IMG/VR virus record: IMGVR_UViG_2617270991_000003
Strand: one strand, 5' to 3'
DNA: 23,312 nucleotides
From: a virus
Taxonomy: Duplodnaviria > Heunggongvirae > Uroviricota > Caudoviricetes
The notes below the pieces were generated by a model. The model did not search any database and was not told the origin of the DNA. It worked only from the letters and a program-made list of their open reading frames with translations. How positions within the stretch are numbered: the stretch's first letter is position 1; each line of letters opens with the position of its first letter. The position numbers and the translations under genes are program-made. Of this stretch, positions 1-19,687 are shown piece by piece.

Positions 1-2053
1 CCAGATCGATAGTCTTACTAAATTCCGGTCCCATATCTCCGGTTTGCGGATCGAAAAATATTGCACCTATTGAGATGATCGGGGCATCAGGATTTTTTCC
101 CATGGTTTCAAGGTCGATCATTAGATGGTCACACGTCCTGCTGGTGGATGTGATTTCTTGATGACCGTTCACCTTAATTGAGTGATCTGCCGTCTCGCCA
201 GTTTCATTATCGCTATCGTGATGCTGATTGCCGCCAGTGTTCTCCTTGTGTGGATGTTCAGCGCCTTCCATTTCCTCCGGATCATCTTCCTGAACTTCAG
301 GCTGATACTCTTCATCGAATGTTTCCTGGTATGTTGCGTCGCCCATTACCGCGCCACAATCAGGGCAGTTGCCGCCGCCGGTCTGACCGCAGGCGGTGCA
401 GACTTTTTCCACTTCCTGTTGCGCCACTGATTCAGGCTGTTTCGTTTCTGGCTCGTTTTGTAACGCATTTGGGCTGTTTTGTTCCGCTTTCTGGTCGTTC
501 TGTTCCGTTTCTTGCTGGTTCTGGTTCACAGAATCGCGGGTCTGGTTCCCCTTAACCCATTTCGGATCATTCGGGTCGCTAATCCCTTCAACAAATTCAC
601 CACGTGATACTGCAAGCAGTTCATCGGCGTCAGGCTGGCTGATATTGGCTGCCTGCATAATTTTGTTTACTTCGTCAGCGGTAACTTTTACCGGCTCTGG
701 TTGTGCGGTCGTGTCAGATGCACCAGTATTTTGTTGTGAACCTGAGTATGTACCGTTTTTACGTGCGAAGTATTCCTCTTTTGTGATTTCCGTAGCTCCC
801 AGGGCCAGTGCTTTTTCCAGACCAGAAAGTTTGTTTGCGCGACCGTATTTTTCGCCGTCCTTATCGGTGAAAAGGAAGTAGAACGGTCCCTCACGCTCTA
901 CAGATGGTTCGTCTTCCACTTCGCATTCGGTTTTTTCGTTGTCCGGCATTGCCGTTTCCACTGCATCAGTTTCTGGTACTGGTGACGGGAGAGTACCAGC
1001 TGTGCCCTGATTTGTTCCTTCGTCATCTTCAAACACGCCCTTGGTAGTCAGGTATTCAGTGATGTATTTGTTCAGTGCTACGGGATCTTTGTGAATGTCG
1101 ATCGGACGTTCACGGACAAGGCCAAAAATAGTCTGGCGGTCGTAGCGAAGGGCATCAGGCTGTTTGCGCATTGATGCCGAGATACGCTTCCAGTCTTCGC
1201 GGTCGTTGTCGATAACTTCATTTTTTGCCCAGCGATGGATGCTGCCGTCAATGTTTCCGGCATCCACATCATCAGGCCAGAGAGCGTAGGCCAGTTCGTC
1301 ATCCAGTGTTTTCCATGTCTGCTTGTATTCGCGATGAATGGCAGCAATGACCGGGCTGATTTTTCCTGTTGAATTTTCACTGTGCTGTTGATTGGTTCTG
1401 GCGCGGGCGAGATCAACAACAGACGTGTATTTTCCGGTTTCCTTGCGTTCACCTTCGCGACGTTTTTTCCAGATGCGCATCTCTGCCTGAATTTCGGGCC
1501 ATTTGGCACCAGGCTTACATTTATGCTTAACCCACCCGATGGCATGCAGCTTAAGCTCCGGATACATGGCGTTAACTTCTGGCATTTTCATCAACGCTTC
1601 AACGATATGTCCGTCGAATGTTGCCATGTCTTCCTGCAACAATTCCTGTGCGCTAATAACCATATCAACGGTGATGTTTTCACATGTGTCGAACTTAACC
1701 ATGACAGCGTTCTGTACTTCAGGGGCCAGCTTGTCAAAAGTGACGTTCATCGGATCGGATTCAGTCTCAACCGGGACAAAGGAAGCAGACTCCTCATCCC
1801 AGCGGTTTTCCTGCATATATTCAGCATCCCAGGAATCGAGGGCAGGGCGGGGTATACCGGGTTTATCCTCGCAGACAAGAAATTTATAAGCGCAGTCCTG
1901 AGCAGCCGGATAATGTTCCAGGAATTGCCAGTGAAATTTTGCGCGGGCGCGACGTTCATCACCGGCTTCAATGGCAGTGGCTACAGCGACGGCACCTTCT
2001 TCCTTTATTGCCTGTTCGTCCGGAATGGCGGCGCAAATAAAGACTTTACTCAT
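1..2053 (-). CDS. Large prophage exonuclease-family protein, 5' portion (about 684 codons); C-terminal part lies beyond the window start
   Basis: Hand translation of the minus strand is open from ATG at 2053 (GAGGT RBS about 9 nt upstream) to the window edge; not in the ORF track, presumably because it is edge-truncated. Protein-like sequence (MSKVFICAAIPDEQ...), Cys4 ribbon CTACGQTGGGNCPDCG, and at the window edge a DnaQ/DEDD-like Exo I motif MIDLETMG..ISIGAIFFD. Plus-strand ORFs 178-881 and 1382-2113 are shadows. Confidence 0.55.
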   Translation of the reverse strand, partial: MSKVFICAAIPDEQAIKEEGAVAVATAIEAGDERRARAKFHWQFLEHYPAAQDCAYKFLVCEDKPGIPRPALDSWDAEYMQENRWDEESASFVPVETESDPMNVTFDKLAPEVQNAVMVKFDTCENITVDMVISAQELLQEDMATFDGHIVEALMKMPEVNAMYPELKLHAIGWVKHKCKPGAKWPEIQAEMRIWKKRREGERKETGKYTSVVDLARARTNQQHSENSTGKISPVIAAIHREYKQTWKTLDDELAYALWPDDVDAGNIDGSIHRWAKNEVIDNDREDWKRISASMRKQPDALRYDRQTIFGLVRERPIDIHKDPVALNKYITEYLTTKGVFEDDEGTNQGTAGTLPSPVPETDAVETAMPDNEKTECEVEDEPSVEREGPFYFLFTDKDGEKYGRANKLSGLEKALALGATEITKEEYFARKNGTYSGSQQNTGASDTTAQPEPVKVTADEVNKIMQAANISQPDADELLAVSRGEFVEGISDPNDPKWVKGNQTRDSVNQNQQETEQNDQKAEQNSPNALQNEPETKQPESVAQQEVEKVCTACGQTGGGNCPDCGAVMGDATYQETFDEEYQPEVQEDDPEEMEGAEHPHKENTGGNQHHDSDNETGETADHSIKVNGHQEITSTSRTCDHLMIDLETMGKNPDAPIISIGAIFFDPQTGDMGPEFSKTIDL

Positions 2054-2145
2054 TTTGTTTTACCTCATTACAGATTTAAGGGTGAACAAATCCCTGCCAT
2101 TGCTGGCATATAAGAATGAAACCGGATATTTATTACGGAACTGTT

Positions 2146-2337
2146 TTAAAGACCTGCCGGGATTTCGTTATTATCCTGGTGAATAACTTTATCGACCGGG
2201 TAACAGTTACCGGGAATTTTCTGTTCCGCTGCGGCAGCCATGCATTCTTTCATTGAGTTGTACATGCCGGTGATTGCATCAAGCGACTCACCAGTATTGA
2301 GATATACAGTCAGAATGAGTATGAATAATGTGTTCAT
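2146..2337 (-). CDS. Small protein with hydrophobic N-terminus (63 aa), YdfD-like by size and position (putative lysis/membrane peptide)
   Basis: ATG at 2337 with GGAGAG RBS 5 nt upstream (track ORF starts at an in-frame GTG at 2343); MNTLFILILTVYL hydrophobic segment; lies directly downstream of the dicB-like gene as ydfD does in Qin. Confidence 0.5.
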   Translation of the reverse strand: MNTLFILILTVYLNTGESLDAITGMYNSMKECMAAAAEQKIPGNCYPVDKVIHQDNNEIPAGL

Positions 2338-2522
2338 CGCCACTCTCCGAAAATACCGAGTTTAAGAAGGGCAATTCTGGAGAGTATGGAATTGTCATTC
2401 AGCAGGTAGGGTTCATATTTTCTCATATTGATTGCATCCTCGGTGAAATCCCTGTTACTGAGCAGAACACCAATATTAAAGCACCCGTCAGACGTATTAA
2501 CGTTTGGTAGTGACGTTTCCAT
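2334..2522 (-). CDS. dicB: DicB-like cell-division inhibitor (62 aa)
   Basis: N-terminus METSLPNVNTSDGCFNIGV..SN..FTEDAIN.RK matches my recollection of Qin DicB (MKTLLPNVNTSEGCFEIGV...FTEDAINKRK); AGGA RBS 7-8 nt upstream; 4-nt overlap with the downstream gene. Confidence 0.7.
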   Translation of the reverse strand: METSLPNVNTSDGCFNIGVLLSNRDFTEDAINMRKYEPYLLNDNSILSRIALLKLGIFGEWR

Positions 2523-2532
2523 TATCGCGTCC

Positions 2533-3090
2533 TCAACAATGAATTTTTAGCAATTGCTCCACAGTCATATTTTTAATTGCGCTCCGGTTTACAAGAGTCC
2601 ATCCTTGTTTCTCCAGATAAAACCGGAAGGTATCCAGGGTGCAGACCATTGCGCCGTCAGGAACGGTTTCAGTGAATTTGATATTGCCGTGTTCGTCGAG
2701 ACGGATAACCAGGGTGCGTCCGTCCCCGTGAATCATTTTGTCGGGAGACGGGGCGTTATTCTGGCGCAGTTCTTCCTCCATGCGATCGAACTCAGCGATG
2801 TAGGCTTCTTTGAAAGTTGCGGCTTTTTTACCTGTGAACCCCATCACCAGGAAAACGAAGCCGTTTTTGGTGATTTGGTACATGGGGCGTTTTTCGCCTT
2901 TGGCGTCGGTGTAGGTAACGGGCGTAAAATTGCGCTCGTTAAAATCTTCAGAGCATTCTAGCGTTTCAATTTTGCGCAGAACGTCCTTGTGCATTTTGCG
3001 GAAGAACTCTGCAACCGCAACAGACGTAGTGACAGCGCGACCATTTTCGATGGTTACGTCAGGGTGAGAAAGGGTAGGGATAGTAGCCAT
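2533..3090 (-). CDS. rha: Rha-family phage regulatory protein (185 aa)
   Basis: MATIPTLSHPDVTIENGRAVTTSVAVAEFFRKMHKDVLRKI...KNGFVFLVMGFTGKKAATFKEAYIAEFDRME fits the Rha domain pattern; ATG at 3090 with AGAGG RBS. The track ORF extends in frame to 3387 but that extension contains an intrinsic terminator. Confidence 0.7.
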   Translation of the reverse strand: MATIPTLSHPDVTIENGRAVTTSVAVAEFFRKMHKDVLRKIETLECSEDFNERNFTPVTYTDAKGEKRPMYQITKNGFVFLVMGFTGKKAATFKEAYIAEFDRMEEELRQNNAPSPDKMIHGDGRTLVIRLDEHGNIKFTETVPDGAMVCTLDTFRFYLEKQGWTLVNRSAIKNMTVEQLLKIHC

Positions 3091-3257
3091 AATGGCAGCC
3101 TCTTGGTTGAGTATTAATAACTCACCACCAAGGTTTTCCACGACCATAAGGGTGGTGAGGCGTACAGGGGTGGAAATACCGGTCAACCAAGAATCCGGCC
3201 AGCCTTGCAGCTGCCCTGCACGCCCCACCATAATCTGAATGTGGCTGTGCTTGACGC

Positions 3258-3282
3258 ATAAAAAAACCGCCTGAGCGCGGTT
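3258..3282 (-). terminator. Rho-independent terminator (leftward transcription) just upstream of rha
   Basis: Minus strand reads AACCGCGCTCAGGCGG followed by TTTTTTTA: short GC stem (CCGC/GCGG) plus a 7-nt U-run. Confidence 0.5.
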
Positions 3283-3564
3283 ATGCGCTTGATTGAATTC
3301 CGGGTTTCCACGCCCGGCACCCGTTTTATGAGGTGCAGGAGCACTATAATTCCACCCGTTCTGGTTTTCAATAGCTACATTCAACATTTTCTCTTACCTT
3401 TCATCACCGAAGTGAACTTTGTTGATGCGGTGCCTGGTGCCTCCAGGTGACGTTAACCAGTTAACAATTAACGCCGGATACAGAGAATCCACCCATAACA
3501 CTGTTTTTGGTTTTAACTGTTCCGCGTGCGCTTAGCCGCATTCACCGCATCACAAAATTCACTT

Positions 3565-3622
3565 TAAAAAGGGTGGCAGAGCAGTCACGGAGTAGAACTG
3601 ATGCCACCAAAGACTACACATG
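3565..3622 (-). ncRNA. dicF: DicF-like small RNA (3' hairpin and terminator conserved)
   Basis: Minus strand TTTGGTGGCATCAGTTCTACTCCGTGACTGCTCTGCCACCCTTTTT closely matches my recollection of E. coli DicF 3' two-thirds (..TTTGGCGGTATCAGTTTTACTCCGTGACTGCTCTGCCGCCCTTTTT), with compensatory GGCGG/GCCGCC to GGTGG/GCCACC changes preserving the stem; sits between ydfC-like and dicB-like genes as in Qin. Confidence 0.6.
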
Positions 3623-3944
3623 GGTATTGTGGCGGGGCTGTCACTTAAGCGTATGGTCAACCTGACAACCCGGTGCATTTTCTGGAGCAATGGAGGAAAC
3701 CCCAGCCATACTTACCGCCGCGCCATTTCGCGGAGTGCCACAACCGGAAGCGCACGGTCGAACTAAATTTAACGACACCGTACAGAGAGACCAATTTCGC
3801 CGTGCGCTTTCGCGTTATGCCCTGACTTTTCAGGGACATATCCTTTCAGTAAACTGTCAGTGCCGGATGTTCACCCGTGTCCGGCGCACGCACTCCACCT
3901 GACCCGTGGAGAACTCCTTAATTACCAACCCTCAGGAGGGTGAA

Positions 3945-4223
3945 ATGGATAAAAAGCAAATTGAGGCCCTGCAATCTATTATTGAAAAACAAGATGAAGC
4001 TATCAGGATTCTTTCATATCGCACTGATATGATACTAAATATGCTTTCTGCATTAACGGCTGCGCTTGGTGGTACAAAAACAAACGTATACCGCGAAGTT
4101 GTTATTCAACAGATAGATAAATTTGAAAAAACCATACCAGGTATTAATGCTCATCTTGCAGAACAAGAGAAAGACCATGCTCTTATGGCAATTTCTTCAG
4201 TAGCTCTCCCGAAAGTTGAGTAG
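3945..4223 (+). CDS. Hypothetical protein (92 aa), convergent with and overlapping the 3' end of the 133-aa minus-strand gene
   Basis: ATG at 3945 preceded by AGGAGG with 6-nt spacer; clean ORF MDKKQIEALQSIIEKQDEAIRIL...; AT-rich codon usage unlike neighbours; no recognisable domain. Confidence 0.5.
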   Translation: MDKKQIEALQSIIEKQDEAIRILSYRTDMILNMLSALTAALGGTKTNVYREVVIQQIDKFEKTIPGINAHLAEQEKDHALMAISSVALPKVE

Positions 4224-4584
4224 TTTTAATTGTTGTTTTGAAATAATCACTGCTTTCACATTTGAGTGATTTCATGGCAATCCAAATGCGGGCCTCTGTG
4301 CCTGCATTTGGTTCCAGTTGCTGTAGACGTTTTGCGTCTTCCAAAAGTAAGGCGATAATGTGTTTCAGCTTCTCATCATTTGCTTGATTCTTGTTTTCAG
4401 GCGAATTCTGTCCGCCGAATAGGCGCTTCTCTTCATACAGACCTATAAAGGCACGACGCACGTTACCGGATATAGTATCGATGGTTTCCTTTTCTACAGT
4501 ACTCAGGTCAAGAGTCGCCAGTTGAGAGCGAACCACATTCGCTGCCATTTCCTGGAATGGCATTGGTAAATCTTTAAATTCCAT
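4183..4584 (-). CDS. Hypothetical protein (133 aa)
   Basis: Track ORF; ATG at 4584 with GAGG RBS 8 nt upstream; plausible protein MEFKDLPMPFQEMAANVVRSQLATL...; no domain recognised. Confidence 0.55.
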   Translation of the reverse strand: MEFKDLPMPFQEMAANVVRSQLATLDLSTVEKETIDTISGNVRRAFIGLYEEKRLFGGQNSPENKNQANDEKLKHIIALLLEDAKRLQQLEPNAGTEARIWIAMKSLKCESSDYFKTTIKTTQLSGELLKKLP

Positions 4585-4606
4585 TATTAGCCTCGTTGGT
4601 TAGCTA

Positions 4607-4825
4607 TTAACGTGGGTATGTAACCATTCTGGCAATGCTTAATGCCGCTGCTTTTTCCAGCCTGGTGATATCCTGCTCCAGAGCGGACAGATTTTCAGCC
4701 TGCTTAGTCCTGGCTTCATTGGCCCATTTCAGATCCTGCGCTGCATTAATTTTCTGGTGCATCCACTCATAAAGTTCATCATCGGTATAGTCTGGCGCGA
4801 TGATGACGGGTTCTCGTTTCTGCAT
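4607..4825 (-). CDS. Small hypothetical protein (72 aa), YdfC-like by size and position
   Basis: Track ORF; ATG at 4825 with GAGGAA RBS 7 nt upstream. Confidence 0.55.
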   Translation of the reverse strand: MQKREPVIIAPDYTDDELYEWMHQKINAAQDLKWANEARTKQAENLSALEQDITRLEKAAALSIARMVTYPR

Positions 4826-4854
4826 ACTGATTCCTCGCGGTGCTGCTTCGCTTA

Positions 4855-4983
4855 TCAGCCGTTAGATTTTGCCGAGCTGGAAAGCGCCTGTTTAAACTCA
4901 CTGAAGCTGAGAGCTTCTTCGCCTTCGGCAAGGCCTTCGAAGTATTCTTCGTAAGCCTTTTCCATGATTGTGTCGAAATCCAT
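4855..4983 (-). CDS. Small hypothetical protein (42 aa), YdfB-like by size and position
   Basis: Hand-found ORF (below the track length cut-off): MDFDTIMEKAYEEYFEGLAEGEEALSFSEFKQALSSSAKSNG; GGTGAG 4 nt upstream; start lies 1 nt after the stop of the upstream small gene. Confidence 0.45.
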   Translation of the reverse strand: MDFDTIMEKAYEEYFEGLAEGEEALSFSEFKQALSSSAKSNG

Positions 4984-4984
4984 A

Positions 4985-5140
4985 TCACTCACCTGAGTTT
5001 CTTTCCAGCCAGCGACGGGCACCATTTTCGGTTTTAAACGTTTTGCTTTTGGTATACGTCATCGCGGTGAATGTGCCGTCCTGGTTGGGAAACACGCCGT
5101 ACACCAGAGATTCGTTGTTGCCAAGCTCGATAGTATCCAT
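4985..5140 (-). CDS. Small hypothetical protein (51 aa), YdfA-like by size and position; first gene of the leftward early operon
   Basis: Hand-found ORF: MDTIELGNNESLVYGVFPNQDGTFTAMTYTKSKTFKTENGARRWLERNSGE; GAGGT RBS 6 nt upstream of ATG at 5140. Confidence 0.5.
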   Translation of the reverse strand: MDTIELGNNESLVYGVFPNQDGTFTAMTYTKSKTFKTENGARRWLERNSGE

Positions 5141-5211
5141 GCTGACCTCATTTCCCCTTAACGCCGGGTGGCGGAACTAAAACCTACAGCGCCGTGCTGT
5201 TCTTGATAGAA

Positions 5212-5240
5212 ATATTAGTAACGCGGATATTTTAAGTCAA
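5212..5240 (-). promoter_or_regulatory. pL-like sigma70 promoter for the leftward early operon, inside an inverted repeat (candidate operator)
   Basis: Minus strand TTGACT, 17-nt spacer, TAATAT; embedded in inverted repeat TTGATAGAAATAT...ATATTTTAAGTCAA (5203-5240). Confidence 0.45.
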
Positions 5241-5336
5241 CAGTATGGCGTATGATATTTTTGATTTGGTAACTATGTAAATGTTTTTTCAAGGGAAAAA
5301 TATTAGTTATACAGCTGATTTGCAGAAGTTATGGCA

Positions 5337-5367
5337 CAAAAAAACCGACTAAGACGTCGGTTTTTTT
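5337..5367. terminator. Bidirectional rho-independent terminator downstream of the repressor gene
   Basis: A-run, CCGAC stem, TAAGAC loop, GTCGG stem, T7 run; reads as hairpin plus U-tract on both strands. Confidence 0.55.
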
Positions 5368-5393
5368 GTTGTGGATGGGGTAGTGAGCGGTGG

Positions 5394-5855
5394 CTACTGG
5401 TTACGTTTCTTTAGTGCCAGCATGTTCTCGAAGGCTTCCTCGTAGAGCTTGTTTAGTCCACGTAGCTGGTTAAGGAGTTTGGCTTTTTCTGACGCAGGTA
5501 GAATCTCGAAGAGGTTAAGTAACTCTGCCTGTTCTTCATTGACCAGCCTCCATCCTTTGCCTGAAAAGTTATCATCATAAGTATCTGATGATCTTACATA
5601 ATTCATTAAGTCTTTAAGGTCTTCTCGAATGTCCTCTGGTTTTACCTTTAACAGAGCCGCAAATTTTAGCGCAGCGTCGGTATTTACCGGTATCTTGCCG
5701 TTCAGATACTGGCTAACGGTGCCTTGAGATTCGAATCCCAACAACTCAGCCGCCAGCTCTTGAGTCAGCTTCAGCTCTTTTTTTCTTGCATTCCATGCGG
5801 CTTTTAAATTCTTGTTCGCTTCTGGAGTTGCAATCACTTCGCGTGTTTTTTTCAT
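5394..5855 (-). CDS. Prophage repressor, HTH (XRE-type) N-terminus, no LexA-like S24 peptidase domain (DicA/RacR-like, 153 aa)
   Basis: Track ORF; HTH signature LTQELAAELLGFESQGTVSQYLNG; C-terminal helical tail ..EEQAELLNLFEILPASEKAKLL.. resembles DicA C-terminus as I recall it; no Ala-Gly/Ser..Lys autocleavage motifs; divergent from a cro-like gene. Confidence 0.75.
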   Translation of the reverse strand: MKKTREVIATPEANKNLKAAWNARKKELKLTQELAAELLGFESQGTVSQYLNGKIPVNTDAALKFAALLKVKPEDIREDLKDLMNYVRSSDTYDDNFSGKGWRLVNEEQAELLNLFEILPASEKAKLLNQLRGLNKLYEEAFENMLALKKRNQ

Positions 5856-12591: not shown

Positions 12592-12671
12592 CCTGGCCTG
12601 AAGCATTAACAACGGTAGGAATTGCGATGGCGGTGGCGCTGGTGGTGTATTCGATTTGCCGCTGGGGATAA
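12588..12671 (+). CDS. Possible small hydrophobic peptide (27 aa)
   Basis: Hand-found ORF: [27 protein letters not shown]; ATGA overlap with upstream stop; GGAGG 11 nt upstream; too short to be sure. Confidence 0.25.
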
Positions 12672-12678
12672 AAACGGT

Positions 12679-12706
12679 TTGCGGGAAAAGGAGAGTTAAG
12701 TAGAAT
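12679..12706 (+). promoter_or_regulatory. Candidate promoter of the hok transcript
   Basis: TTGCGG, 16-nt spacer, TAGAAT; followed by a structured leader with inverted repeat CTATCTG...CAGATAG. Confidence 0.35.
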
Positions 12707-12882
12707 TGCAGCGGGTGCTTGAGGCTATCTGTCTCAGGCATGAACACCAAAAGGCAGATAGAGAAAAGCCCCAGTTAACATTACGCGTCCGGCAAGACGC
12801 TTAACATTAATCTGAGGCCATATCTATGCTCTACACACGTAGGTTAGCCTCTTACGTGCCGAAAGGCAAGGAGAAGCAGGCT

Positions 12883-13038
12883 ATGAAGCAGCAAAAGGCG
12901 ATGCTAATCGCCCTGATCGTCATCTGTTTAACCGTCATTGTGACGGCACTGGTAACGAGGAAAGACCTCTGCGAGGTACGAATCCGAACCGGCCAGACGG
13001 AGGTCGCTGTCTTCACAGCTTACGAACCTGAGGAGTAA
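12883..13038 (+). CDS. hokD: Hok/Gef-family type I toxin (51 aa), HokD/RelF-like
   Basis: MKQQKAMLIALIVICLTVIVTALVTRKDLCEVRIRTGQTEVAVFTAYEPEE has the Hok family signature (TM helix, LTRK.LCE.R); track ORF 12826-13038 is an in-frame upstream extension (mok-like reading frame). Confidence 0.75.
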   Translation: MKQQKAMLIALIVICLTVIVTALVTRKDLCEVRIRTGQTEVAVFTAYEPEE

Positions 13039-13108
13039 GAGACCCGGCGGGGGAGTAATCTCCCGCCACCTCTGATGTGCCAGGCATCCTCAACGCACCC
13101 GCACTTAA

Positions 13109-13127
13109 CCCGCTTCGGCGGGTTTTT
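13109..13127 (+). terminator. Rho-independent terminator at the hok transcript 3' end (left copy of the direct repeat)
   Basis: CCCGC-TTCG-GCGGG hairpin followed by TTTTT. Confidence 0.55.
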
Positions 13128-13139
13128 GCATTAGTCTGG

Positions 13140-13168
13140 TTGACAAAAATAGAAAAATGCGAAAATAT
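13140..13168 (+). promoter_or_regulatory. Candidate promoter of the inserted two-gene cassette
   Basis: Consensus -35 TTGACA, 17-nt spacer, weak -10 AAATAT; about 35 nt upstream of gene A ATG. Confidence 0.3.
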
Positions 13169-13203
13169 GTGGTTTACGAATTCTAAAAAAAGCGAAACTT
13201 GAA

Positions 13204-13854
13204 ATGAATGAAAATCAGTTAGCTCCTTGTTGGGAATTTCAACCTTATCTTGCTGAAAACTATGTTCGCCACTTGTTGGCGGAGATCGCTAACGTACTTG
13301 AGCAGCTGTACTATCATAAGCACGCATTAGACAGCAACTGGTCTGAAGGTGTAAGGGCTTATGATTGGGTCAGAAATCATCTTATTCAAAATGAAGATGC
13401 AATTCCTGGCCTTGAGATGATTTCCAAGGGGTTGGACTATGTAGTTGCTTTAAATAAAGTTCCGCTACAATTTACCAAAGATTGCATTAATAACCCCAAA
13501 AAGAAACATCGTCTGCGTCGAAATAAAGTAGAGTATGAGCAGCTCTCATTGTTTGGTGATGTTGAGGCTGAGCAAGATATTACATGGCGAGTCATAGCTG
13601 AGCCTTTTTTATCCGAAGAGGGCGATGGTGAATTAGAGTCCACACTGCCTCGTTGGGAGGTAGCTCTTGTTGGATTTAATACTTATGGTGCTCAGATTAG
13701 TATAGTTTCTCATCAATCTACAGCATCGATGCCGCTTATGCCTCTTGATTATAACACACTCCCTGACGAAGCGGAGATTAATAAGGTGCCTCTTCGTCGG
13801 CGTACGAAGGATAAAGATTTGGATGTGAGCAGTGATGGAACATCAGGTGAATAA
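13204..13854 (+). CDS. Hypothetical protein (216 aa), first gene of the inserted cassette
   Basis: Track ORF; no recognisable motif; acidic; AT-rich codon usage; overlaps the downstream gene by 20 nt. Confidence 0.6.
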   Translation: MNENQLAPCWEFQPYLAENYVRHLLAEIANVLEQLYYHKHALDSNWSEGVRAYDWVRNHLIQNEDAIPGLEMISKGLDYVVALNKVPLQFTKDCINNPKKKHRLRRNKVEYEQLSLFGDVEAEQDITWRVIAEPFLSEEGDGELESTLPRWEVALVGFNTYGAQISIVSHQSTASMPLMPLDYNTLPDEAEINKVPLRRRTKDKDLDVSSDGTSGE

Positions 13855-14938
13855 CTTCACTGAGTATCGGGGTGATAAGCTCAAACTAGCGAGAATGGCT
13901 GTTGGGCTTTCTTGTGAAGAGTTAGCCGAAAAAATTGGCAAGACAAAGCAATTCGTTAGCAAACTGGAGAAGGGGTGCAGGCCATCGGAGCAATGTCTTG
14001 AGTTAATATCTTCAGCGCTTATGATTAAGTCCAGTTTTCTTTTTACTGAACGAAAATACGCTCTGGAAAGTGATGTCTGCCATTTTCGGAGTAAGAAGTC
14101 CAGGACTCAAACGCTGACTAATAGTGTATTGGCCAGGGCTGAGATTCTTAATATTATAATTTCTGCTGTTGAAGGTGAAATCGAATTTCCTGACGTTAAC
14201 ATACCGGAGCACCCAGGGGCTGAATTACTTACTCCGAATGATATTGAGCGAGTGGCAGAAGATTGTCGCCGTGCCTGGAATTTAGGTCTTGGCCCTATAT
14301 CATCAATGGTTAAATTGGCGGAGAGTTTAGGGGTAATCGTTGCGCATGTTACGGGAGTCGATGATCGTGTTGATGCTTTTACTGTTCACAATAACAGGCC
14401 TGTTATCATCAGGAACAATGTTAAAAAAAGCATATGTAGATTTCGCTCTGATTTAGGTCATGAATTAGGGCATTTAGTAATGCATGAGGGCATAACGACA
14501 GGTGATAAACTTACGGAATCACAAGCCGATCACTTTTCGAGCGCCTTATTAGTTCCCAGGTTATCTTTCATTAAAGAATTTCCACGAATACGAGGTAAGC
14601 AATTCGACTGGAATGCTCTGGTTGAATTTAAACTTAGATGGAAAATCAGCCTTAAAATGTGTATTTATCGAGCCAGCGCATTAGGCTTATTGACCCAGGA
14701 ACAGGCAAGAACTGGCTATATGCATCTTAATTCCAGAGGGTATACGAGAGTTGAACCTGGTGATGAACTTTTGCGCCCTGAAGAACCCGGCATGCTGGCC
14801 GAGGCGATTGAAATGCTGGATGATGCAACCTGGCTAAGAATTCTTATGAAAACTGGCTTGAGCCAAGATTTAATTCGTGAGTTGTTCTCCATCAACAGAC
14901 CTATTACAAATCCAAGAAATATTTTCCAGATTGTTTGA
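13835..14938 (+). CDS. Fused XRE-family HTH / ImmA-IrrE (COG2856, M78-like) zinc metallopeptidase (about 367 aa)
   Basis: N-terminal HTH (KLKLARMAVGLSCEELAEKIGKTKQFVSKLEKGCRPS); HExxH motif HELGHLVMH in an ImmA/IrrE-like context; ATG 13835 (track starts at adjacent GTG 13832). Confidence 0.75.
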   Translation: MEHQVNNFTEYRGDKLKLARMAVGLSCEELAEKIGKTKQFVSKLEKGCRPSEQCLELISSALMIKSSFLFTERKYALESDVCHFRSKKSRTQTLTNSVLARAEILNIIISAVEGEIEFPDVNIPEHPGAELLTPNDIERVAEDCRRAWNLGLGPISSMVKLAESLGVIVAHVTGVDDRVDAFTVHNNRPVIIRNNVKKSICRFRSDLGHELGHLVMHEGITTGDKLTESQADHFSSALLVPRLSFIKEFPRIRGKQFDWNALVEFKLRWKISLKMCIYRASALGLLTQEQARTGYMHLNSRGYTRVEPGDELLRPEEPGMLAEAIEMLDDATWLRILMKTGLSQDLIRELFSINRPITNPRNIFQIV

Positions 14939-14943
14939 GTATA

Positions 14944-14968
14944 CCCGCTTCGGCGGGGTTTTTGTTTT
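14944..14968 (+). terminator. Rho-independent terminator (right copy of the direct repeat)
   Basis: CCCGC-TTCG-GCGGG(G) hairpin followed by TTTTTGTTTTT; same 15-nt hairpin core as 13109-13127. Confidence 0.55.
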
Positions 14969-15047
14969 TATTTTCAACGTGTTTGAAGTTTTGGACGGTG
15001 CCAGAATAGAATCAAAAATACTTAAGTAGCGCGCAGGGAGAAGAGGG

Positions 15048-15269
15048 ATGGACCCCGAACAGGGGGAGTGCTATTTATCTGGAAGGATTCTGTTGATGAA
15101 AATCGAAGAATTACGTGAAATTTTTAGTGAAGATGGCCTCTATGCTGTGCGCGTTGAGAATGGGGGTATTACCTACACAGCGTTAATTCCTGATGATCAT
15201 GTAGTGTTATCTGTTGAGGCATTCATTGAATACTTGGAAAGACTCGGTTTCAAGGTAGTTCGGGAATAA
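15048..15269 (+). CDS. Hypothetical protein (73 aa)
   Basis: Track ORF; GGGAGAAGAGGG RBS. Confidence 0.5.
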   Translation: MDPEQGECYLSGRILLMKIEELREIFSEDGLYAVRVENGGITYTALIPDDHVVLSVEAFIEYLERLGFKVVRE

Positions 15270-18428: not shown

Positions 18429-19478
18429 ATGCTTAATACTGTAAAAATATCCAGTTGTGAGTTAATCAACGCCGACTGCCTGGAATTTATCCGGTCGTTA
18501 CCCGAAAATTCTGTTGACCTGATAGTCACGGACCCGCCGTACTTTAAAGTGAAGACTGAGGGATGGGATAACCAGTGGAAGGGCGACGATGATTACCTGA
18601 AGTGGCTGGACCAGTGTCTGGCGCAGTTCTGGCGGGGGCTGAAACCTGTCGGAAGTCTTTACCTGTTCTGTGGTCATCGCCTGGCATCTGATATCGAAAT
18701 CATGATGCGTGAACGCTTCAGTGTGCTGAACCATATTATCTGGGCGAAGCCGTCCGGACGCTGGAACGGATGCAACAAGGAAAGCCTGCGGGCGTATTTC
18801 CCCGCCACAGAGCGCATTCTGTTCGCGGAACATTATCAGGGGCCGTATCGTCCGAAAGATGCCGGGTATGCGGCGAAGGGCAGTGCACTGAAACAGCATG
18901 TGATGGCCCCGCTGATTTCTTACTTTCGTGATGCGCGCGCGGCCCTGGGGATAACGGCAAAACAGATTGCAGATGCCACAGGAAAGAAAAACATGGTGTC
19001 GCACTGGTTCAGTGCCAGTCAGTGGCAGCTACCGAACGAAAGCGATTATCTGAAATTACAGTCGCTGTTTGCCCGGGTGGCAGAAGAGAAACATCAGCGC
19101 GGTGAACTGGAAAAGCCCCACCACCAGCTGGTGGATACGTATACGTCACTGAACCGGCAGTATGTGGAGCTGCAGAGTGAATATAAGCATCTGCGGCGGT
19201 ATTTTGGTGTGACGGCGCAGGTGCCGTACACGGATGTGTGGACACATAAACCGGTGCAGTTCTATCCCGGGAAACATCCGTGCGAAAAACCGGCAGAAAT
19301 GCTGCAGCAGATAATCAGCGCAAGCAGTCGTCCGGGTGACCTGGTTGCAGATTTTTTTATGGGCTCAGGTTCAACGGTAAAAGCTGCACTGGCGCTCGGG
19401 CGTCGTGCGATTGGCGTTGAACTGGAGACCGGACGTTTTGAGCAGACAGTCAGGGAAGTTCAGGATTTAATCGTTTGA
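18429..19478 (+). CDS. Orphan DNA methyltransferase (amino-methyltransferase, DPPY motif near N-terminus, FxGxG near C-terminus)
   Basis: Track ORF; IVTDPPYF catalytic motif and C-terminal FFMGSGST SAM-binding motif; no adjacent restriction endonuclease. Confidence 0.75.
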   Translation: MLNTVKISSCELINADCLEFIRSLPENSVDLIVTDPPYFKVKTEGWDNQWKGDDDYLKWLDQCLAQFWRGLKPVGSLYLFCGHRLASDIEIMMRERFSVLNHIIWAKPSGRWNGCNKESLRAYFPATERILFAEHYQGPYRPKDAGYAAKGSALKQHVMAPLISYFRDARAALGITAKQIADATGKKNMVSHWFSASQWQLPNESDYLKLQSLFARVAEEKHQRGELEKPHHQLVDTYTSLNRQYVELQSEYKHLRRYFGVTAQVPYTDVWTHKPVQFYPGKHPCEKPAEMLQQIISASSRPGDLVADFFMGSGSTVKAALALGRRAIGVELETGRFEQTVREVQDLIV

Positions 19479-19527: not shown

Positions 19528-19603
19528 GGCCCTTTAGCTCAGTGGTGAGAGCGAGCGACTCATAATCGCCAGGTCGCTGGTTCAAATCCAGCAAGGGCCA
19601 CCA
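19528..19603 (+). tRNA. tRNA with anticodon CAT (Met-type; in phage context probably tRNA-Ile2 read as AUA after lysidine modification)
   Basis: Hand-folded cloverleaf: acceptor GGCCCTT/AAGGGCC, D-arm GCTC..GAGC, anticodon loop CTCATAA, T-arm GCTGG-TTCAAAT-CCAGC, 3' CCA; 76 nt. Confidence 0.8.
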
Positions 19604-19610
19604 TCACATA

Positions 19611-19687
19611 CCGCCATTAGCTCATCGGGATAGAGCGCCAGCCTTCGAAGCTGGCTGCGCGGGGTTCAAGTCCCCGATGGCGGTCCA
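19611..19687 (+). tRNA. tRNA-Arg, anticodon TCG
   Basis: Hand-folded cloverleaf: acceptor CCGCCAT/ATGGCGG, D-arm GCTC..GAGC, anticodon stem CCAGC/GCTGG with loop CTTCGAA, T-arm CGGGG-TTCAAGT-CCCCG, 3' CCA; 77 nt. Confidence 0.7.

Follow-up and report, generated by a model that had tools for sequence, protein, structure and literature searches.

A lambdoid prophage of Escherichia coli type carries between hok and rem a probable Rosmer-family toxin-antitoxin cassette whose candidate toxin bears a clamp-binding-type peptide

In this work, we analysed a 23,312-nucleotide (nt) stretch of DNA from the virus record IMGVR_UViG_2617270991_000003 (Caudoviricetes), hereafter the window, which carries a lambdoid prophage of the E. 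coli type, and in particular a two-gene cassette located between its hok and rem genes. The first gene (gene A, 13204-13854, plus strand; WP_001004956.1) encodes a 216-amino-acid toxin candidate of the RmrT type, and the second (gene B, 13835-14938, plus strand; WP_000401168.1) encodes an antitoxin of the RmrA type, which has 367 amino acids when read from the ATG at 13835 and 368 when read from the GTG at 13832. Judged by homology, the cassette is very probably a toxin-antitoxin (TA) module of the Rosmer family. The explanation that we consider the best overall, with a probability of about 0.6, is that of a RosmerTA module with a clamp-targeting toxin neutralised by its RmrA partner. The element that leads to this explanation is the pentapeptide Q113-L-S-L-F117 of gene A (codons at 13540-13554, plus strand), a candidate beta-sliding-clamp-binding motif. 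The cassette as such is a new copy of a named and catalogued defence family, a kind of system that is already known; for a clamp-binding-type peptide in this toxin family, no earlier description was found in the searchable literature.

The two genes overlap by 20 nt, and the RefSeq annotation of E. coli 042 contains the identical two coding sequences, so both the open reading frames (ORFs) and the overlap proposed in an earlier note on this DNA are borne out. That note had also read gene B as an XRE-type helix-turn-helix (HTH) fused to a metallopeptidase with an HELGH signature, and the Pfam profile search clearly confirmed it: residues 16-62 (13880-14020, plus strand) match HTH_3 (5.1e-7), and residues 176-281 (14360-14677, plus strand) match the ImmA/IrrE-type Peptidase_M78 (PF06114, 6.5e-11), both matches exceeding the Pfam gathering scores, with HELGH encoded at 14459-14473. 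SinR and the 434 repressor were the PDB sequence matches of the HTH. The best PADLOC model for gene B is RmrA PDLC03943 (6.2e-105, model positions 2-342 of 370), while the capP and capH models reached only 1.6e-14 and 1.5e-4. Furthermore, gene B falls into phrog_2439 (7.6e-123), matches the NCBIfam spr1629-family repressor/antitoxin model at 1.5e-45, which is below the equivalog cut-off of that model, and is 29% identical (2e-35) to the verified RmrA of Millman 2022. Nine RmrA homologues of 24-42% identity all keep residues H209, E210, G212, H213, H217 and E228, and such invariance of the zinc-site residues suggests that the gene B peptidase is probably active. The nine proteins also share, between their HTH and M78 domains, an invariant linker dipeptide FR (usually HFR; F84-R85 of gene B, nt 14084-14089), which is as strongly conserved as the zinc ligands and might serve as a site of self-cleavage or as a pseudo-substrate.

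Gene A gave no match in Pfam and NCBIfam, and the earlier statement that it has no recognisable motif holds true for such general libraries. It does not extend to more specialised ones: gene A matches the PADLOC model RmrT PDLC03929 (4.6e-25, model positions 5-195 of 198) and phrog_5786 (8e-85), and it contains the conserved clamp-type peptide. A word-index search for its relatives returned Enterobacterales only, and the profile of these was then used in an exhaustive HMMER search, which yielded 69 proteins, about 56 of them full-length relatives of about 200 amino acids at 16-41% identity. In five of five distant homologues that were looked up, the gene is directly followed by an HTH/Peptidase_M78 gene for a protein of 342-373 amino acids, in the toxin-first order, and the contexts include a Tn7-like element, phage-like DNA-polymerase regions and a resolvase locus. 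On the metagenome contig SRR22387854 (1-4917), the gene A homologue P0069 (QLSLFDN) and its M78 partner were seen as cargo of a Tn7-like element, together with Mu-transposase C, TniB and TniQ and followed by a DUF1508 gene. Taken together, gene B has what characterises a RosmerTA antitoxin, that is, an XRE-HTH fused to a C-terminal M78 domain in a protein of about 360-400 amino acids, and gene A has what characterises the toxin, being an adjacent small rmrT gene of the same operon, from one of several variable families and devoid of any general-library domain. By these sequence features, gene B is best described as the putative antitoxin of gene A. E. coli FDAARGOS_1249 has an IS5-family element within gene A, near codon 40 (window 13320-13328), whereas gene B is intact and identical; this single case may represent a natural toxin inactivation and is circumstantial for the toxin and antitoxin roles. 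A literature search for WP_001004956.1 and WP_000401168.1 found no paper mentioning either protein.

RosmerTA, which is widespread, was defined by Millman 2022, where a deletion of rmrA was unobtainable and the delta-rmrA variant was not transformable. Cloned Rosmer systems protected E. coli from phages both in that study (the system of E. coli OLC-716) and in Ernits 2023 (the system of phage Kita). In Ernits 2023, RmrA was presented as a conserved ImmA-protease antitoxin that is paired with diverse toxins. The anti-phage or abortive-infection reading advanced in the earlier note was thus right in kind, since both genes match RosmerTA models, while its view of an uncharacterised system gives way to a catalogued defence family. 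Like the OLC-716 system, the cassette is a toxin-first two-gene operon on a mobile carrier, with a toxin of about 200-240 amino acids lacking a Pfam domain and an XRE-HTH plus M78 antitoxin of about 370 amino acids. The two systems differ in the toxin family (PDLC03929 for gene A and PDLC03935 for Millman's RmrT), in the clamp-type peptide (QLSLF vs. QLKLDL) and in the carrier, which is a nin-region junction of a lambdoid prophage in our case and a P4-like satellite in the case of Millman's pair. In E. coli O55:H7 DEC5B, we located the verified pair (WP_000286846.1 and WP_000483388.1, at 3708-5549 of the record analysed, L026) in such a P4-like satellite, its neighbours being a P4-family primase and an Icd-like gene. 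Only 10 of 5,426 complete E. coli genomes have the pair, which makes it rarer than the gene A/B cassette (237).

Nothing was known of how Rosmer toxins act before the pneumococcal RipA study of late 2025. In that study, Maziero et al. 2025 PLoS Genet (PMC12795458) placed RipA (Spr1630) in the Rosmer family and showed that this toxin is counteracted by RipB (Spr1629). Mutations that relieve its toxicity change five residues in the hydrophobic pocket of the beta sliding clamp DnaN, and with these substitutions the RipA-DnaN signals in two-hybrid and split-luciferase assays are lost. It is the presence of ripA alone that makes clpX and ripB essential. No motif in RipA is discussed in that paper, and the RipA peptide contacting DnaN is undefined there. 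Similarity to our cassette lies in the toxin-first order, in RipB being an RmrA homologue, and in the proposed target of RipA, as the DnaN hydrophobic pocket is the very site that a QLSLF peptide would bind. The differences are that RipAB is chromosomal, belongs to a Gram-positive host and has a competence-induction phenotype, with no known role in defence.

The pentapeptide QL(S/D)LF is the bacterial beta-clamp-binding motif, with QLxLxL as its hexapeptide variant (PMC9690074). QLSLF of gene A is an exact match to QL[SD]LF, and such a match was present in 3.8e-4 of gene A shuffles. Outside its core strands, the gene A family conserves no short element better than E110-x-x-Q113-L-S-L-F117. Over 57 representatives, Q occupies the first motif position in 44, L the second in 23, S the third in 23 and L the fourth in 38; F or L are found at the fifth position in 15 and 10 and at the sixth in 15 and 12, respectively. 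The strict pattern was found at the aligned site in 15 of the 57 proteins and never elsewhere in the same proteins, with a mean of 0.46 in shuffled proteins, and the relaxed pattern at the aligned site in 39 of 57 and twice elsewhere, with a mean of 6.9 in shuffled proteins. Because the site is inherited within the family, these figures speak of the conservation and specificity of one motif and not of 39 independent events. The flanks of the motif vary in length (10-14 and 10-25 residues), and the downstream flank is rich in acidic residues. The gene A-derived peptide considered for DnaN binding is EYEQLSLFGDVE.

Another precedent is provided by SocAB, the type VI TA system of Caulobacter crescentus, where SocB binds the clamp cleft via a clamp-binding motif and blocks replication elongation, and where ClpXP keeps SocB harmless, in parallel to the clpX/clpP dependence reported for Rosmer-type modules. 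SocAB has no sequence or domain relationship to the cassette, SocA, a ClpXP adaptor, lacks the HTH-M78 architecture, and no mobile-element or defence role of SocAB is known. By analogy with RipA and SocB, and given the motif, we consider it an even chance that the gene A toxin docks on the beta clamp and acts through it. The mechanism would then be as follows. The cassette's own promoter (TTGACA-17-AAATAT) would drive a bicistronic, translationally coupled operon ending at a copy of the hok terminator, and the HTH of gene B would probably autoregulate this operon. The M78 zinc-peptidase domain of gene B would hold the toxin inactive, probably with the help of ClpXP. Gene A would most likely insert Q113-L-S-L-F117 into the hydrophobic cleft of DnaN, thereby displacing the replicative and repair polymerases and arresting DNA replication. 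Upon infection or stress that disables neutralisation, both the cell and a clamp-dependent phage would stop replicating. In this scheme, the presumed toxicity of gene A and its presumed neutralisation by gene B derive from the homologues, while DnaN docking, replication arrest and ClpXP assistance are suggested by the motif plus the RipA and SocB precedents.

Several points weigh against this mechanism. In BLAST, gene A showed no homology to Millman's RmrT (E = 7) or to TRITO_40, the toxin of a Rosmer pair in phage Tritos (E = 0.02), and the gene A family profile gave no significant match to RipA, Millman's RmrT or TRITO_40, so the RipA result carries over to gene A only by analogy. The pneumococcal-type RipA peptide QMELV fails the relaxed pattern, and relaxed patterns arise by chance in 16-38% of shuffled proteins. 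Rosmer toxins are, moreover, mechanistically heterogeneous, as the toxin of the phage Kita system depolarises the membrane (Ernits 2023). A defence activity of the cassette is only predicted, from that of other family members. Structure prediction adds another point. AlphaFold reached a mean predicted local distance difference test (pLDDT) of 62 with 13 close sequences, and pLDDT 85 with a predicted template modelling score of 0.75 when 63 diverse sequences were supplied. The latter model consists of two long N-terminal helices, a three-stranded sheet, short helices 101-104 and 108-115, three more strands and a low-confidence C-terminal tail. In the shallow-alignment model, the motif region stays under pLDDT 50; in the better one, it is the lowest-scoring core block (pLDDT 72), and the motif makes up the end of the short helix 108-115 (pLDDT about 72-89), so that it does not clearly present itself as a free linear peptide and could be structural. 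Finally, over the 57 representatives E110 (nt 13531-13533) is conserved at 0.91 vs. 0.77 for Q113, and to our knowledge a conserved glutamate at -3 is not a feature of clamp-binding motifs.

These observations give some room to another reading, which we hold to be unlikely but the most serious of the alternatives: the cassette is a RosmerTA module, and ExxQLSLF is a docking or cleavage site for the M78 domain of RmrA, an element recognised by ClpX or simply the structural end of a helix, while the toxin acts through its globular domain, e.g., as a restriction-endonuclease-like nuclease. RmrA has many unrelated toxins as partners, so a shared short peptide could be the target of the antitoxin, and peptides resembling the clamp-binding motif do recur in three RmrT families. 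The most conserved residue, E110 at -3, lies outside the canonical clamp motif, and the motif is partly helical in the pLDDT-85 model. Yet the family consensus equals the clamp-binding pentapeptide residue for residue, the tolerated changes (QLxLxL, QxxLF) mirror known variants of it, and the genetics of RipA together with the two-hybrid data point to the DnaN pocket. As to a nuclease of the PD-(D/E)xK type, the restriction-endonuclease-like alpha/beta core with conserved D...(D/E)xK catalytic residues was not found in gene A. Besides, the two readings of the peptide are not exclusive: an antitoxin that masks or cuts a clamp-binding peptide would fit both.

A RipA/RipB pair was identified in S. 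mitis via a published primer sequence; there, RipA matches PADLOC RmrT PDLC03931 and RipB matches RmrA PDLC03945. The RipA family has an invariant Q141-x-E-L, followed by V/I/F and acidic residues, after a variable linker, plus an N-terminal DLF; in S. suis-type proteins the central form is QMELF. The pneumococcal RipA candidates (N-terminal NQDLF and central QMELV) match the clamp motif less well than QLSLF of gene A does. The verified RmrT of Millman bears QLKLDL, of the QLxLxL form and conserved in its family, where the variable segment of the Enterobacterales proteins reads Q-L-[KND]-L-D-L and that of the Vibrio-type ones NLDLF or NYDMF. This family, too, repeatedly shows an acidic residue at -3. 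The matches of clamp-type peptides across the three RmrT families are suggestive only. A broader view, which we put forward tentatively and regard as rather doubtful, is that clamp-binding peptides (QLSLF; QLKLDL/NLDLF; QMELF or the N-terminal DLF) may be a general and so far unremarked feature of sequence-unrelated Rosmer toxins, that RosmerTA may be largely made of beta-clamp-poisoning defence modules, and that the HTH-M78 antitoxin, together with ClpXP, may neutralise the toxin through recognition or cleavage of the same peptide.

Three other candidates were considered and rejected. Rousset et al. described a prophage TA of E. coli E101 that makes clpP essential, to which Millman refers as an earlier example of the Rosmer configuration; its accessions differ both from those of our cassette and from those of Millman's verified pair, and it is not identical to the cassette. 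A membership of the E101 toxin in Millman's family, conjectured from a T46S suppressor, was not retained. PD-lambda-2 of Vassallo (an Xre-peptidase, HigB and a third gene) is not the closest relative, having a three-gene architecture and only a weak model match.

The comparison with related phages clearly showed that the cassette is a self-contained, moron-like insert of two genes between hok and rem. It is bracketed by two hairpins, the terminator of the hok mRNA on the left (13107-13128, plus strand; -15.1 kcal/mol, z -3.9) and the cassette's own terminator on the right (14943-14964, plus strand; -10.3 kcal/mol). The direct repeat formed by them (13108-13127 vs. 14943-14962) is identical at 19 of 20 positions, and both copies score as intrinsic terminators, in agreement with the earlier description of a duplicated hok terminator. 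The cassette-free Stx2_14040/PPompW and HannyBb align to window positions 12671-13128 and 14943-15170 as contiguous DNA with one terminator copy (1784-1804 of the record L002). This lone terminator aligns to both copies of the window, and the sequence 3' of the right copy is collinear with the empty site. As cassette-free relatives possess one terminator copy only, the 1,835 bp enclosed by the repeats represent a true insertion and not a chance repeat. With the cassette present or absent at the hok-side junction among the relatives and the insertion clean, the claim of a moron also holds.

The same junction receives other genes. Phage Tritos carries there (Tritos 1950-3823) a different Rosmer pair, TRITO_40/41, whose HTH-M78 protein is 32% identical to gene B (2e-47), and E. 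coli 103605 (NZ_CP025920.1) has a Doc-family TA toxin and a small gene between hokD and rem. The hok-terminator/rem junction (13128/14943) is thus a hotspot for alternative cargo. Several phages were also seen to have insertion-sequence or "mobile element" genes at this place, for instance IS629 in PPompW_EH2201. Among 50,697 phage records searched by megablast, 79 share the flanks and none carries the cassette, and gene A found no match in a tblastn search of 50,697 deposited phage genomes. E. coli 042 and ABU 83972 are natural carriers, and 237 of 5,426 complete E. coli genomes contain the cassette, 224 of the 237 at an identity of at least 99% and 232 of them in the hok-rem context. A hok-rem query was matched by 4,716 E. 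coli genomes, nearly all cassette-free, and hokD and rem were directly adjacent in most of the matches sampled.

This location invites the view that the cassette mainly serves addiction through post-segregational killing, or is a selfish module stabilising the prophage, with no real anti-phage function. The neighbouring hok/sok is a classic addiction locus, another strain has a Doc-family TA at the junction, stabilisation is a common role of TA modules, and RipAB of S. pneumoniae has a physiological role in competence and is not known to defend against phages. We nevertheless consider this view improbable: two cloned Rosmer systems protected E. coli from phages (Millman 2022, Ernits 2023), and the homologues occupy typical positions of defence cargo, such as a Tn7-like element and, for the verified system, a P4-like satellite. 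Addiction and defence are, moreover, not mutually exclusive.

Most improbable of all is the induction switch proposed in the earlier note, in which gene B would be an ImmA-like anti-repressor protease cleaving the 153-amino-acid prophage repressor. In its favour, M78 is related to ImmA/IrrE, which cleave XRE repressors (the ICEBs1 work quoted in Ernits 2023), and the repressor (5394-5855, minus strand) is DicA-like and, as that note had stated, devoid of a self-cleaving (S24 peptidase) domain. Against it, the cassette is dispensable: most related prophages lack it, as do about 4,700 E. coli genomes with the same hok-rem junction. Its distance from the repressor is 7.3 kb, whereas proteases of the ImmA type adjoin their substrates. 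Its HTH and protease are fused, and gene-A-like partners always accompany the HTH-M78 gene, including in non-prophage contexts (a Tn7-like element, a streptococcal chromosome). Moreover, the RmrA models outscore every other model for gene B by tens of orders of magnitude. ImmR/ImmA (ICEBs1), IrrE/DdrO and CapH/CapP do share with gene B the M78 (COG2856) fold with HExxH and the pairing with an XRE-type HTH. In those systems, however, repressor and protease are separate proteins, the protease cleaves the repressor and a neighbouring operon is de-repressed, whereas in gene B both domains are fused, the partner is a small toxin, and no operon of a cyclic-oligonucleotide-based antiphage signalling system (CBASS) or of an integrative and conjugative element lies nearby. 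An ImmR/ImmA-type switch has its protease beside a separate cognate XRE repressor; the neighbours of gene B are hok, gene A and rem. The CapH/CapP arrangement, with separate capH and capP genes beside a CD-NTase/effector operon, is also absent, as no other defence genes flank the cassette; the CapH/CapP-like gating of an effector operon once suggested for it is contradicted by the large gap between the RmrA and capP matches of gene B.

The clamp-type peptide turns a toxin of unknown function into a specific three-residue hypothesis. If QLSLF docks on DnaN, there would be a simple, mutable three-residue handle on killing by a Rosmer toxin, and a catalogued defence family would be linked to replication arrest in the best genetic model organism. 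Docking would also suggest why ClpX and ClpP become essential in strains with such modules, and the few natural clamp inhibitors, which attract interest as antibacterial leads, would be joined by prophage-borne clamp poisons. Should the peptide prove structural, the cassette would simply add an annotated RosmerTA copy to a moron hotspot that is already known.

In the 5' to 3' direction, the region contains hok/mok, the terminator hairpin, gene A, gene B, the second hairpin, a rem homologue (15048-15269), a small ORF, ydfU/DUF968, rusA and Q. Immediately 5' of the cassette there is a complete hok/mok/sok type I TA locus, with hok/mok at 12826/12883-13038 and an Rfam match to sok at 12713-12888 (117 bits). 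Since this locus adjoins the cassette, the prophage holds two different toxin systems back to back. The G+C content is 0.40-0.45 over 13200-15200, compared with 0.50 upstream and 0.54-0.57 in ydfU. Hence, the AT-richness ascribed to the module by the earlier note is real with respect to the upstream DNA, but it does not set the cassette apart on the other side, as the low G+C extends through rem.

The same note had postulated a promoter of the cassette's own. A candidate sigma-70 promoter is present at 13140-13168 (plus strand), with TTGACA as the -35 element (13140-13145), a 17-nt spacer and AAATAT as the -10 element (13163-13168). At this spacing the -10 element agrees with the consensus at only 3 of 6 positions, which is why the promoter was missing from the list of the consensus scan. 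The Tritos Rosmer cassette has the same TTGACA-17-AAATAT upstream, with identical spacing and a diverged spacer, and the retention of both elements despite this divergence supports the promoter call, the weak -10 notwithstanding. A search 3' of the -10 element revealed no conserved operator palindrome common to the cassette and Tritos; the imperfect palindrome around GAATTC (13173-13188) might, as a speculation, serve as an operator. Farther downstream, in the late-regulatory region, two tRNA genes (Met-CAT and Arg-TCG) were seen at 19528-19687, 3' of a DNA-methyltransferase-like ORF (18429-19478); the matching tRNA region in E. coli 042 is annotated as Ile, Arg, Arg.

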